Shown: piece after piece, positions 4,291 through 8,729 of the stretch
Layout: every line of letters begins with the position of its first letter
How positions within the stretch are numbered: position 1 is the first letter of the stretch
Sequence record: NC_001609.1
DNA length: 11,624 nt
Strand: one strand, 5' to 3'
Source: Enterobacteria phage P4
Translations under genes and position numbers: made by a program
The notes under the pieces: generated by a model
Seen by the model: only the letters and a program-made list of their open reading frames with translations
What the model was told of the DNA's origin: nothing
Databases searched by the model: none

Positions 4291-4590
4291 AAAAAATTTT
4301 TTTTCGAAAGAACTGTTCACACTGTTCACCTTTCTGTTTTCTCCTTTTATTTCAGAGTGATAGGTGGTGAATAATGGGTGAAGGGTGAACATTCGATTCT
4401 TCACCTCCGGCATTCTGCCGATGTGACTCATACCGGTGATTAATCCTCCGCACTGAAATCACTCAGGAAGAAAAAAGTTTTTTTTGATTTGATTGTTCAC
4501 ACTGTTCACCTTTCGTTTTTCTCTTTTAATTTCAGTGTGATAACGGGTGAATATACGGTGAAGGGTGAACAGTGGATTGTTCACCTTCGG
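4291..4590. repeat. crr (cis replication region): two 120-bp direct repeats carrying alpha-binding type I iterons
   Basis: Copies at 4291-4410 and 4471-4590 are near-identical, with an exact 180-bp period (ACTGTTCACC at 4321 and 4501) and a 60-bp unrelated spacer. Each copy holds several TGTTCACC / GGTGAAYA octamers in both orientations. Confidence 0.75.
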
Positions 4591-4603
4591 GGGATATCGG
4601 GAT

Positions 4604-4635: not shown

Positions 4636-6969
4636 TCAGGCTGTTGTAGGGTCGTCACATTTTGGCAGCCAGTCGCCGTAGCTTTCCTCTTTCAGCGTCA
4701 GGTTGGTCTGTATCCCCTGTTTGGTATGGCGTTTCTCGTAATTCAGTCCGTATTCCTTCAGCATCACCGGCAGCCCCAGCCCGAACATTTTCAGACTGAG
4801 TACATTCCGGTAGCCGTTTGCCTCCATGTAGGCCAGATAGGCGTGATAGAGGTATTTACGGTAATTGCGCGGGATGATACTGGCGTTCCCCATATACATG
4901 CCGCTGGTCTGCGGCAGGGTTTCCAGATAGCCGATAAAATCAAACGTCGGGTCGGCATCCCGTTTGATGTTCAGTGCCTCGTCTGAGTTCTGCTGGGACT
5001 GAAGCAGTGACCGGGCGAGCATCGGGTCGCTGAACTTCTGCATCAGGTGACGCACGATGACCGCCAGCTCGCGGGTGATTTTGTCCTTAAGCTGCGGGTC
5101 GCGCTCCTGCGGGGCTATCTGTTCCGGGAAGTGAATAATCACCCGTCGGCGTGACACGCCGCCGCTGCGGTCGGTGAAGCGCATCGGGTTATTGTTCACG
5201 GCCAGAATCACCGCCGGGATGTGCGTGGAGTACGCATCCCGGTATTTCGGGTCAACGGACACCGCATCGCCGCCGGTGATGGCCTTGAGTCCGGCACCGT
5301 CGCCGCTCCATTTTTCCTGGTCCGGCAGGCGTATCAGTGAGAAGCCAGTTAACGCGGCACGTTCACGCGGGGATTCCAGCGTCTCGATGGTGGCCGACGT
5401 GGCGTTATCCTCCCCGGCCAGCAGGGTGGCTATTTCGGCCATGATACTTTTGCCGCTGCCGCCGGGACCGGTCACCTCCAGAAAGAGCTGCCAGTCGTAG
5501 CGGTTTGCCAGCACCATAAACAGTGCAGCCAGAATCACGTCGCGTTTTTCCGCACGGCCACCGGCGGCACGGTCAAGCCAGCGCCAGAAGGCGGGGGCGT
5601 GGGTTTCCAGCGTTTCACCGTCCACCGGCGGGGTGAAATCCACATCGCACAGGGTGCGCATCCAGTGTGACGGACTGTGCGGGTGGAACGTGCCGTTCTG
5701 CGTGTCGAGCACGCCGTTACGAAAGCCAATCAGGCGGCGGGAGGGGGCTTCCTGCTGCGGAATAATCAGCTTCAGGGTATCCACCACGGAGGCCACCTTC
5801 CCGGAGGAGAACGGCGCACGCAGACGCTGAAACAGCCCGGCCACATCCCGGGCAAAGTCCTGTGGCGGCAGCACCTTCCAGACACCATTTTCATAGCGGG
5901 ACAGAAGCTGGCCGTTGGCATCGACCGCGAGCGCCTCGCCGTAATGCTCATAGATACGCATGGCCTTTTCGCTGGTACTCATGGCGGAAAACTCCGCTTC
6001 GCTCATGGTGTCGAACGGGCTTTCAGCCGGTGGCCGGATGGCATCGTAAATGGCCTTACGGGTGGCCTCCCCGCCGTACTGCGTGAAGGCATCATTCCAG
6101 TCACCGAAGACCGGCGGCAGGGCAACAACACCTTCACACGCATCTGCGGCTGCGGCGGCTTTTTTCTGGCCGTCACCACTGAGGTCACGGTCAGCGGCAA
6201 GGACAATCTGACAGGCGGGGTGCTTCTGCCGGGCAAGGCTGGCCAGAGAAAGGAGGTTCACGGAAGAAAGCGCCACCATCACCGTTTCACCGGTCAGGTG
6301 ATGTACGGTAAGTGCGGTCGCGTATCCCTCCGCTATCCACAGACGTTTTCCGGCCTGATTCTGTCCTTCAAGGGTGTGACAGGTGCCCCTGACCTGTCCG
6401 CCTTTCAGGGTGCGCTTACGGCCGTCAGCACTGATTAACTGAAGGTTAACCAGTTCGCCGCTGTCGTCATACAGTGGCACCACAAGGTCACCGGCGCGCC
6501 AGCTCACGCCACCGGCTCTGTGTGTGCCGGTCAGCATCCGGCATTCCCGGCCGGGAAAGCCCTTGCGGGTCAGGTAGGCGTTACCGGTTCCGGTACGGGT
6601 TTTCGCCATCAGGGTTTGTGCCAGTGCGGCGGCGTTCTTCCGGGCAGCGTCTGTTTCATCAACGGCGGCGGTCGTCACTGCCGGGTCAGCCGGTGGCAGG
6701 CTGCCGGTCACGGCAGCCACCTTTGCGGCCGCGTCGGACGGGGAAACACCAAAAACCTTTTCAACCAGTTTCAGGCCGTCACCGGCACCACACTGATTGC
6801 AGTACCAGGTGCCGCGCCCCTCCCTGTCATCAAAACGGAAGCGGTCACTCCCGCCACAGACCGGACAGGGCTGATGACGGTTCTTCAGCACCTGAATCCC
6901 CAGCGCCGGGAGAATACGCGGCCAGTGGCCGAGCGCATGGCTGACGGTGGCGGTTACGTTCATTTTCAT
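4636..6969 (-). CDS. alpha: Alpha protein: bifunctional DNA primase / helicase with C-terminal iteron-binding domain (P4 replication protein)
   Basis: 777-aa ORF. N-terminal zinc-ribbon CPVCGG...(x)...YCNQCG, primase region, then Walker A GPGGSGKS (D5-like helicase). AAGGAG SD 8 nt upstream of the ATG at 6969. Length matches recalled P4 alpha. Confidence 0.92.
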   Translation of the reverse strand: MKMNVTATVSHALGHWPRILPALGIQVLKNRHQPCPVCGGSDRFRFDDREGRGTWYCNQCGAGDGLKLVEKVFGVSPSDAAAKVAAVTGSLPPADPAVTTAAVDETDAARKNAAALAQTLMAKTRTGTGNAYLTRKGFPGRECRMLTGTHRAGGVSWRAGDLVVPLYDDSGELVNLQLISADGRKRTLKGGQVRGTCHTLEGQNQAGKRLWIAEGYATALTVHHLTGETVMVALSSVNLLSLASLARQKHPACQIVLAADRDLSGDGQKKAAAAADACEGVVALPPVFGDWNDAFTQYGGEATRKAIYDAIRPPAESPFDTMSEAEFSAMSTSEKAMRIYEHYGEALAVDANGQLLSRYENGVWKVLPPQDFARDVAGLFQRLRAPFSSGKVASVVDTLKLIIPQQEAPSRRLIGFRNGVLDTQNGTFHPHSPSHWMRTLCDVDFTPPVDGETLETHAPAFWRWLDRAAGGRAEKRDVILAALFMVLANRYDWQLFLEVTGPGGSGKSIMAEIATLLAGEDNATSATIETLESPRERAALTGFSLIRLPDQEKWSGDGAGLKAITGGDAVSVDPKYRDAYSTHIPAVILAVNNNPMRFTDRSGGVSRRRVIIHFPEQIAPQERDPQLKDKITRELAVIVRHLMQKFSDPMLARSLLQSQQNSDEALNIKRDADPTFDFIGYLETLPQTSGMYMGNASIIPRNYRKYLYHAYLAYMEANGYRNVLSLKMFGLGLPVMLKEYGLNYEKRHTKQGIQTNLTLKEESYGDWLPKCDDPTTA

Positions 6970-6983
6970 GGTGTTGTTCTCCT

Positions 6984-7304
6984 TCAGTGCAGTACCGGCG
7001 CTTTTATGTGACGGGCACAGAGTTCATCCATCACAACCAGCCCGAGAAAGGACAGCGACGGCGCGGCCTTCAGGGGGCCGGATTCCATTAAATCTTCCAG
7101 CAGGGCACAGGCTATCTGACGCCCTTTTTCCTCACCGTGCTGGCGCAGATAAAAGCCTTCCAGCTCAGCGGCGATGGCCGCCTCCAGTGACTCAAGGGTG
7201 AGATGCGGGTAGCGGTGCTGACGTTCGCACACGGTCAGCCAGGCACAGGCGACAGCGCGACGGTAAAGGGCAGCGCGTAAGACGGGCGGTAAGGGTGTTT
7301 TCAT
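6984..7304 (-). CDS. Hypothetical protein (106 aa) immediately upstream of alpha
   Basis: ORF with ATG at 7304 preceded by GGGAGAA SD; stop 14 nt before the alpha start. Function not recognised. Confidence 0.65.
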
Positions 7305-7439
7305 TTGCTTTTCTCCCTGTGACAGATGACTGCATTCCGTGCCGGTTGCATTAACTGATAAGGCATATCTGCGTCTCCTGAAGACGTGCGTATCCCTGCG
7401 CGAATACGCACATTTAATTTTTCGGGGGTCGTTTTTTAA

Positions 7440-7895
7440 TTACAGATAATTGCGGTAACTGTTATCCGGGGTGGTTTCCGGGTCAGGCTCCGTGCGGGGA
7501 ATTTCCCGCCATTCCCGCGCCACCGGTGCTGCCCGGCTGACCGGAACAGTGTCCTGCGGGTAAATATCCAGATATTTTTCCCGCCATTTCTGTAATTCCG
7601 GGTCTCCGGCCATTTCTTTCAGTACCGCATGCCGGTTTACGGGGCTGCGTTTAAACAGGTCAGGACGGTCACAGGTAAATTCCCGCAGAAAACGCCCCAG
7701 CGGGATGTCTGTGGTGCGTCCGTCAGCGAGGATACGCACAAGGATACTGAATTTACGGCGGTACGGGTTCCAGACAATGTCCGGGCAGCGGTACGGCATT
7801 TCCCACGGAATACCGTCTTCCAGAATGCCGACCACGGCCACATCGGGAAAACCGGCAGAACGGTAAATCTCACCGGGCTGGGGAAAATCAAACAT
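7440..7895 (-). CDS. orf151, conserved P4 protein of unknown function
   Basis: 151-aa ORF; the ATG at 7895-7893 lies 2 nt after the stop of the upstream ORF. Size matches the P4 ORF known by this name. Confidence 0.7.
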   Translation of the reverse strand: MFDFPQPGEIYRSAGFPDVAVVGILEDGIPWEMPYRCPDIVWNPYRRKFSILVRILADGRTTDIPLGRFLREFTCDRPDLFKRSPVNRHAVLKEMAGDPELQKWREKYLDIYPQDTVPVSRAAPVAREWREIPRTEPDPETTPDNSYRNYL

Positions 7896-8175
7896 GCGTC
7901 CTGTCTCCCCGGTCTTTCTGCTGGGCGAGAAAATCGCGGCACAGGCCTTTGGCTTTCAGCTCATTCAGCACAAAATCAATATCTTCATTCAGGTAGCTGA
8001 AAATATGTGGAATGTAGAGCTGATGCAGGCCGGAGAGTTCACGGTGAATCAAATCACCCCCAACAAACCGGGATACGGCGCTGGCGCGGTTGAGCTTATG
8101 GTAAGCCTCAATGCTGAGGTGTTCACGGGCGTCATGACGCGCTGAGACGGTCTGAGGGGCTTTTTTATTACGCAC
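7888..8175 (-). CDS. eps: Epsilon, candidate antirepressor that derepresses the helper prophage (95 aa if GTG start)
   Basis: C-terminal part of the 7888..8460 reading frame. A GTG at 8175-8173 is preceded by GGAGG with 6-nt spacing and overlaps the kil stop by 8 nt, giving 95 aa. The alternative ATG at 8220 (110 aa) would overlap kil extensively. Identity from position between kil and orf151. Confidence 0.5.
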
Positions 8176-8419: not shown

Positions 8420-8505
8420 GATGGCGATAGCCCAGACGGGGGTGAGAATACCGGCTTCACAGGATACCGGCCAGCCCGGAGGCTGCCCCGCCTGAGCTAC
8501 CATTG
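8420..8505 (-). ncRNA. cI: Candidate cI immunity RNA region (approximate)
   Basis: Untranslated leader between the predicted PLE and kil. Contains a segment (plus-strand GGGGGTGAGAATACC, 8437-8451) complementary to a 10-mer direct repeat GTTCTCACGC found upstream (8660-8669) and downstream (8408-8417), matching the seqA/seqB/seqC logic of P4 immunity. Boundaries are approximate and from memory. Confidence 0.3.
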
Positions 8506-8689
8506 ACTCTGCGGCATAATGAGCGGACGCGGGCAGGATGCACGGAATGCCATCTGCACGACTGACCACACACCACACCATAATCTGGCGCTCTGTGGCA
8601 TTGATTGCGACACAAAAAAAGACGCGTGGCGCGTCATATGTCGCCTGTGAATTGCTCGGGTTCTCACGCCCGGCTGCCGATTTTGCGGC

Positions 8690-8729
8690 AGGCGAAAAAC
8701 TATATCCGCAAATGCCGGAAAAAGGCAAG
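8690..8729 (-). promoter_or_regulatory. Candidate early leftward promoter PLE (sigma70-like)
   Basis: On the minus strand, TTGCCT (-35, plus 8729-8724), about 18-nt spacer, TATAGT (-10, plus 8704-8699); predicted start near 8690. Lies just downstream of the vis stop. Confidence 0.3.

Follow-up and report, generated by a model that had tools for sequence, protein, structure and literature searches.

The window analysed here is the whole 11,624-nucleotide stretch of the Enterobacteria phage P4 sequence record NC_001609.1, the complete genome of this satellite phage, and all positions refer to it. The P4 region of interest is 100% identical to GenBank entries X02534 (the P4 essential region) and X05623 (the alpha gene and crr), and its leftward operon carries, on the minus strand, orf151 (7440-7895), whose stop codon TAA lies at 7442-7440, cnr (orf106; 6984-7304; Pfam DUF5375, phrog_5991) and alpha (4636-6969); the ORF coordinates of orf151 and cnr were confirmed. 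The interval of 135 nt between orf151 and cnr (7305-7439) is the junction of two cassettes of this operon, one concerned with helper derepression (epsilon-orf151) and the other with replication (cnr-alpha). A canonical intrinsic terminator follows the alpha stop codon on the same strand (4628-4604), in which GACCGGC-ATCT-GCCGGTC (4628-4611) is followed by TTTTTTT; next to it, at 4300-4600, comes a pair of long direct repeats in which GGTGAACA/TGTTCACC motifs are frequent, the known crr region. A covariance-model search of the whole window with Rfam 15 (E <= 1) gave, besides one chance match, only the known P4 immunity elements at 8420-8705, namely the C4 antisense RNA (the CI immunity RNA; 8420-8507), isrK (8615-8692) and the c4 a1/b1 target region (8653-8705), and nothing in 7305-7439. 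Text searches of the open literature found no paper on the orf151-cnr interval. P4-type copies of the exact junction are present in 904 of 5426 complete E. coli genomes (about 1 in 6). A P4-type cnr, with 100% protein identity and the same junction, was also seen on short GTDB contigs (L007-L010) labelled as Dysgonomonas, Clostridiales, Ferruginibacter and 'bacterium' MAGs, which probably reflects mis-binning or contamination.

An inverted repeat in this interval is no new sighting, since X02534 (1984) already carries the annotation 'region of dyad symmetry' at window positions 7381-7415, to which, as far as we know, no function has been assigned. The same entry annotates a '-10 consensus' (TGTAAT) at 7439-7444. 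A sigma-70 scan of 6900-7950 gave no promoter on either strand, this hexamer included, and both an internal cnr promoter and an antisense promoter are therefore unsupported. In the leftward mRNA the dyad corresponds to a stem-loop, hairpin 1 (7384-7413, minus strand), with a stem of 10-12 bp, the loop GCGCAG and a folding energy of -16.8 kcal/mol. The 8-bp stem that had been reported at 7386-7411 in the first-pass annotation was confirmed as a perfect inverted repeat, GTGCGTAT/ATACGCAC, at 7386-7393 and 7404-7411, and forms the core of a structure that G.U pairs lengthen to 12 bp in the leftward RNA (7413-7384). Its pairing probability is close to 1, as it is in eight of the ten variants folded, and the stem is strand-specific, the antisense strand reaching only -10.7 kcal/mol. 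On the entire minus strand of the 11.6-kb genome only eight distinct 30-nt windows are as stable, just three of them within the left operon and one of these three in the CI RNA. The full 135-nt gap folds only modestly better than its shuffles (z = -1.98, a stability matched by 8 of 200 shuffles). A stronger local hairpin, of about -20 kcal/mol on both strands, occurs inside the alpha coding region at ~6689-6721. When the transcript strand was read beyond the stem, the sequence following hairpin 1 was GUCUUCAGGAGACG, and the earlier statement that neither stem of the interval is followed by a U-tract proved correct. A consensus terminator scan of 6900-7950 called no terminator at hairpin 1. Thus, while a stable GC-containing stem is present, a canonical intrinsic terminator for leftward transcription is excluded because the U-tract is absent.

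Two hairpins had been proposed for the interval, and both inverted repeats are present where they were placed; they are, however, not equivalent. Hairpin 2 (CGUCU-UCAGG-AGACG; 7372-7386, minus strand, arms 7386-7382 and 7376-7372) is a weak local stem of only 5 bp, whose positions 7384-7386 also belong to the base of hairpin 1 and which encloses the Shine-Dalgarno sequence AGGAG. In a covariation test 73% of its cells were paired, four of its five pairs were broken in some relatives, and neither a compensatory pattern nor support exceeding that of shuffles was found; its 5' arm drifts (GUCC, GUGC, GCCU, GACC, ACCU) without matching changes on the opposite side. Hairpin 2 is the Shine-Dalgarno region of a 21-codon ORF and not a conserved structure. 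The AGGAG itself (7375-7379, minus strand) lies 8 nt upstream of an ATG at 7366 and keeps a fixed distance of 6 nt from hairpin 1 in all variants, and the segment 7367-7383 has no variable site (0 of 17) among 99 P4-type sequences. A further stem that is predicted in several relatives, formed by CGGAUAA/UUAUCUG (about 7468-7444) where orf151 ends, was rejected, as natural changes break its pairing without compensation.

The conservation of hairpin 1 was assessed at two levels, within the P4-type population (99 distinct sequences) and across the wider family (15 distinct variants). A metagenome search with the orf151 alignment, which was aimed at divergent hairpins, returned only P4-type loci of 97-100% identity, and these were used for population variation and not for covariation. 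Hairpin 1 is almost unchanged in the 99 P4-type sequences and in relatives whose Cnr identity falls to 76%, and it is near-invariant in 13 of the 15 family variants. In the P4-type set a single site of its 30 varies, and that change (7386 C>U) leaves a G.U pair. Hairpin 1 and the Shine-Dalgarno sequence together have 1 variable site in 47, compared with 15 in 88 for the spacer and mini-ORF (Fisher p = 0.011) and 55 in 259 for the third codon positions of orf151 and cnr (p = 0.0008). In the 15-variant alignment hardly anything changes in the stem, the loop or CAGGAG, and indels are absent between these parts; the spacer on the 5' side differs in both sequence and length. On these comparisons hairpin 1 is taken to be under strong purifying selection.

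The substitutions that do occur in hairpin 1 (UC/GG to CU/GG, G>A in L058 and 7386 C>U) all retain pairing on the transcript strand, as G.U or better, and the first and last of these leave or create mismatches on the opposite strand. Across the variants the folding energies consistently favour the sense stem over its antisense counterpart. In the divergent variants L057 and L184/L061 the 3' arm is disrupted and the hairpin is much weaker, at -7 to -9 kcal/mol. When covariation was tested over the 15 distinct variants, 95% of the cells of hairpin 1 were paired, but the measures obtained were reached by 281 of 500 shuffles. Covariation is unsupported because the element hardly varies, and its conservation could therefore reflect sequence rather than structure.

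The hairpin 1 pattern was found only downstream of orf151 homologues (phrog_10748), which holds for all IMG/VR occurrences and for the hairpin-like matches in the fetched GTDB loci, and when IMG/VR was scanned for occurrences of the hairpin sequence elsewhere, only the context 3' of orf151 came up. In elements that carry neither epsilon nor orf151, the left-operon genes are chained by 4-nt overlaps and there is neither gap nor hairpin. Hairpin 1 is thus a marker of the point at which the epsilon-orf151 cassette ends distally and translation must restart. It is a real, selected and strand-specific RNA stem-loop at a cassette junction, adjoining a ribosome-binding site and a gene stump that lead into cnr. 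A natural disruption of the stem was observed in one prophage copy (L004, also match H38; E. coli 02E060, NZ_AP027197, locus ~1196-1510), in which an IS66-family element (ISCro1-like) lies inside the 5' arm of hairpin 1 and similarity to P4 ends at window position 7406.

The first-pass annotation described the 135 bp as intergenic, which is only partly correct; the interval carries the 21-codon mini-ORF (7301-7366, minus strand), which is preceded by the strong Shine-Dalgarno sequence described above, starts with the ATG at 7366 and ends with a TGA that overlaps the cnr ATG (ATGA, 7304-7301). A Shine-Dalgarno sequence belonging to cnr itself, GGGAG (7313-7317, minus strand), lies within the mini-ORF 8 nt before the ATG at 7304, and GGGAG/GGAGG is kept before cnr in nearly all relatives. 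Among P4-like relatives in E. coli and many other Enterobacterales, cnr is almost always preceded by a gene of 75-86 aa of the family phrog_10110, with the same stop/ATG overlap. While full-length relatives match phrog_10110 at 1e-40 to 1e-44, the P4 ORF with its 21 codons is too short for a full-length match; it shares with the family its position directly upstream of cnr and the stop codon overlapping the cnr ATG. The 86-aa variants stand behind the same hairpin and Shine-Dalgarno sequence, start with ATG CCT like the P4 mini-ORF and end in the same ATGA overlap. As the mini-ORF is located where most P4-like elements have the 75-86 aa gene, it is probably, judged from sequence, a deletion stump of a phrog_10110 gene. 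At the DNA level the stump resembles the full gene only over the first ~35 nt and the last ~17 nt, and the similarity scores are marginal when compared with shuffles (z 1.5-2.1); the stump reading therefore depends chiefly on position and on the start and stop that the two have in common. The phrog_10110 family occurs in 61% of P4-like elements and was noted as missing from P4 (de Sousa & Rocha, PMC8628076). Our analysis locates the probable former site of this gene that P4 'lacks' relative to the family.

Other arrangements of this segment were also found. The IMG/VR element L186 has a different short form of 24 codons, MPYKQNNDAINHNNPCSLTGEVNI, with the C-terminal LTGE..V of the family, and in L156 and L058 the unit of hairpin and Shine-Dalgarno sequence is placed directly before cnr. 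In the body of the P4-type mini-ORF 11 of 62 sites are variable, with no excess at third codon positions (5:3:3), and 97 of the 99 sequences keep an open frame; from this pattern the peptide seems to be unconstrained. In L193 the start of the mini-ORF is lost (ATG>ATA, window 7364), and in one P4-type sequence the stop is lost (TGA>TGC, window 7301), with codon 2 of cnr altered as well. The layout suggests that the mini-ORF may act as a translational lead-in to cnr. As cnr has its own Shine-Dalgarno sequence, however, any dependence on coupling is only putative.

The RNA on either side of hairpin 1 has features of its own. Between the orf151 stop and the stem lies an A/U-rich, single-stranded spacer (7414-7439, minus strand), in which 4 of 26 sites are variable in the 99 P4-type sequences; the spacers of relatives differ in length and sequence but stay A-rich. 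At 7427 P4 has C (CCCCC), a minority allele in the C-rich part of the spacer, 92 of the 99 distinct P4-type sequences having A (CACCC). The spacer contains AA|AUU (7420-7416), located 3-8 nt before hairpin 1, which fits the RNase E motif RN|WUU; because this motif is degenerate, the match is weak evidence. A C-rich, G-poor stretch at 7424-7501 (minus strand; 28 C and 13 G in 78 nt), which takes in the final ~60 nt of orf151 and runs 16 nt into the gap, is a rut-like candidate. Read as 7501-7424 it lies directly 5' of hairpin 1 and has a C/G ratio of 2.07, the joint highest of any 78-nt window of the left-operon transcript, the other top window with 2.07 being 8361-8284, which coincides with the known Rho-dependent terminator timm. 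A second stretch with more C than G lies downstream (7310-7233; C/G 1.72, 98th percentile). In relatives, the equivalent upstream window reaches only the 68th-98th percentile. The interval was also considered as a target of the CI RNA and rejected as such, the duplex energy being weaker than for 95% of other operon windows.

The position of hairpin 1 was then related to the transcripts of the operon. The -10 element predicted for PLE extends to 8699, and the Rfam match to isrK has its 5' end at 8692; together these put the start of the transcript at ~8692. From there the distance to the base of hairpin 1 (7384) is 1309 nt, and that to the U-tract of the alpha terminator (~4604) is ~4.09 kb. 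Deho and colleagues reportedly described, in 1988, RNAs of 1.3 kb and 4.1 kb from PLE, and of 1.7 kb and 4.5 kb from PLL, ~400 bp upstream. The two distances match the reported 1.3-kb and 4.1-kb PLE transcripts. We know of no earlier work that assigns the short left-operon transcript to a particular sequence element as its source.

From the anatomy of the hairpin 1 region, its conservation, its strand preference and these distances, we infer that hairpin 1 is most likely a point of partial termination or processing, at which the stem would fix and protect the 3' end of the short early transcript, with a translational restart into cnr following. We favour this reading tentatively, and do so because the stem without a U-tract, the rut-like flanks and the transcript distances all fit it. 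Leftward transcription would run through the orf151 stop and a short A/U-rich spacer into a very stable mRNA stem-loop lacking a U-tract, and a fraction of the transcription complexes would terminate near it, most plausibly with the aid of Rho, for which the C-rich, G-poor RNA upstream and downstream could offer loading sites. Alternatively, full-length RNA could be cut near hairpin 1. In either case 3' exonucleases would trim back to the stem-loop, which would define and protect the 3' end of a ~1.3-kb (PLE) or ~1.7-kb (PLL) mRNA carrying the immunity region, epsilon and orf151. As cnr and alpha would be present only on read-through transcripts, ending at the canonical terminator at 4628-4604, hairpin 1 would set the ratio of the early helper-exploitation message to the replication message. 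On these transcripts the strong Shine-Dalgarno sequence 6 nt past the stem and its ATG would restart translation on the 21-codon ORF, and the overlap of its stop with the cnr start would pass ribosomes on to cnr and keep the downstream RNA covered.

Several observations weigh against parts of this scheme. Covariation is unsupported, the divergent variants L057 and L184/L061 have a much weaker hairpin, the upstream excess of C over G is only moderate in relatives, the A-rich tract before the stem is atypical of Rho-dependent ends, and single natural copies have lost the start or the stop of the mini-ORF. The upstream rut-like stretch is mostly translated, as part of orf151, and the untranslated gap of 73 nt is short for Rho, which speaks against Rho loading. 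In addition, the fixed 6-nt spacing between hairpin and Shine-Dalgarno sequence suits a translation-linked or 5'-end role at least as well as termination. Still, of the functions that had been suggested in the first-pass annotation, an internal attenuator, an RNA processing site or a Rho-dependent pause regulating alpha dosage, some form remains the best-fitting one for hairpin 1, given its stable stem without a U-tract, the rut-like stretch, the distance of 1309 nt and the signs of selection; for hairpin 2 the suggestion was not borne out.

The main rival reading is a papBA-like RNase E site, which we consider unlikely on balance. On this account RNase E would cut the spacer at AA|AUU (7419/7418), the hairpin would serve as the protective 5' structure of the cnr-alpha segment and free the Shine-Dalgarno sequence, and the upstream fragment would decay separately. 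Such a role would agree with an RN|WUU-type motif that lies unpaired in A/U-rich RNA immediately before a stable stem (PMC5927463), and with the 6-nt spacing between the hairpin and the Shine-Dalgarno sequence, which is free of indels in every variant while the 5' spacer differs. It would also explain why hairpin and Shine-Dalgarno sequence are kept as a unit before three arrangements, the 86-aa gene, the mini-ORF and cnr directly, and a cut in the spacer would likewise yield an upstream product of ~1.3 kb. However, so degenerate a motif should turn up in any A/U-rich spacer, its conservation among relatives is not strict, and the stem would stand ~5 nt from the new 5' end, a distance that is acceptable though putative. 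Moreover, the upstream product should be unstable because it would have no protective stem at its 3' end, whereas the 1.3-kb RNA is reportedly a distinct species on northern blots.

It is improbable, in our estimate, that the element is an evolutionary relic with little present function, in which the stem-loop and Shine-Dalgarno sequence came with the epsilon-orf151 cassette, for instance as what used to be its terminator together with the beginning of the following gene, and have been maintained through linkage. The strict association with orf151 homologues in IMG/VR and in the fetched GTDB loci, and the absence of both gap and hairpin from elements without orf151, are what such a history would predict, and the body of the mini-ORF evolves as if neutral and two divergent variants have a degraded stem. 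In contrast, hairpin 1 and the Shine-Dalgarno sequence are significantly less variable than the adjoining spacer, the mini-ORF and synonymous sites, and the hairpin is near-identical across genera while its flanks diverge.

A DNA operator, with GTGCGTAT-N10-ATACGCAC as a palindrome for a dimeric phage or host protein, is very unlikely. Both arms and the loop are conserved in sequence without covariation, as an operator would be, and a second copy of the dyad, GTGCGT-N14-ACGCAC, for which 0.03 chance matches are expected, is found within orf151 (7714-7739, translated in frame to V R I L A D G R T), at a distance of 328 bp from the intergenic one. This second copy, however, is absent from the orf151 homologues of all relatives outside the P4 type, and although a chance origin is unlikely, the two dyads are for this reason not regarded as an operator pair. 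Natural substitutions in hairpin 1 preserve G.U pairing in RNA and not the symmetry of the DNA, there is no promoter-like site nearby to be controlled, and the palindrome occurs in no other genomic context in the IMG/VR scan. Least credible of all is an intrinsic terminator for rightward (antisense) transcription: although the plus-strand stem is followed by a T-rich run (ATTTAATTTTT), the A-rich spacer is kept in most variants and upstream A-tracts are typical of intrinsic and not of Rho-dependent ends, the plus-strand stem is weaker (8 bp, a 10-nt loop, -10.7 kcal/mol), was not called by the consensus scan and has no plus-strand promoter-like site in 6900-7950, and we know of no reported rightward transcript in the orf151-cnr region.

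Returning to partial termination or processing at hairpin 1, a more specific version can be envisaged, which we regard as speculative and improbable, namely that the hairpin and the flanking C-rich RNA would constitute a Psu-sensitive, Rho-dependent attenuator. The late anti-Rho capsid protein of P4 itself would then feed forward to the dosage of cnr and alpha, and the stump would be kept since ribosomes entering on it would shield the downstream rut and couple into cnr. If true, a Psu-sensitive attenuator would link capsid and helper status to replication control. The balance of epsilon and orf151 against cnr and alpha decides the life of P4 as lytic satellite, plasmid or prophage. P4 is the reference satellite phage, and the 30-nt stem with its Shine-Dalgarno sequence provides a precise, mutable candidate for the source of the short transcript. 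Taken as a whole, the orf151-cnr junction is probably a real but fairly ordinary operon-internal control point, made up of a conserved RNA hairpin followed by a ribosome-binding site and a probable 21-codon stump, and its description refines a regulatory layout that was already known.

Among known systems, the one within the same operon is timm, which acts under CI RNA control; special complementarity of the CI RNA to the orf151-cnr interval was, in contrast, not found. At both sites a 78-nt window reaches the extreme C/G ratio of 2.07 (7501-7424 in the case of hairpin 1). In the relatives L050, L051, L053 and L186 the rut-like signal of timm is again the top window, while the signal before hairpin 1 is only moderate there. 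The timm element is a Rho-dependent terminator in the P4 immunity region (X51522 8365-8209; PMC3177188). Rho-dependent 3' ends as described by Dar & Sorek (PMC6061677) have a stable stem, lack a U-tract and show more C than G downstream; an A-rich tract upstream was not reported for them, A-tracts upstream of the stem being typical of intrinsic ends (PMC6061677). Hairpin 1 has in common with these ends a stem of terminator size, the absence of a U-tract, an excess of C over G downstream and a location at a gene end within a transcription unit. It differs from them in that the P4 stem has an A-rich tract upstream, that its strongest excess of C over G is upstream and not downstream, and that its 3' end is a candidate one. 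Compared with the alpha intrinsic terminator (4628-4604), hairpin 1 is a GC-containing stem-loop of similar size and energy, but TTTTTTT follows only the alpha stem.

The RNase E site of papB-papA (PMC5927463), from which the RN|WUU definition is taken, resembles the P4 junction in having an A/U-rich, single-stranded RN|WUU-like site 5' of a stem, between cistrons that differ in the dosage they need, and the arrangement of an RN|WUU site 5' of a stable stem has been described for 7 of 10 E. coli operons (PMC5927463). Most of the protective stems in E. coli, in contrast, lie inside coding sequence, and the P4 stem is also a candidate 3' end. As for the entry into cnr, ATGA coupling is known from the trp operon and from other P4-like left-operon genes, and the mini-ORF and cnr have the same overlap as full-length phrog_10110 and cnr in relatives. 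Unlike in such coupled pairs, the upstream ORF of P4 is cut to 21 codons of drifting sequence, and cnr has a Shine-Dalgarno sequence of its own. The hairpin 1 region thus belongs to known kinds, operon-internal stem-loops at 3' ends or processing sites and coupling through overlapping codons, and does not constitute a new kind of system.
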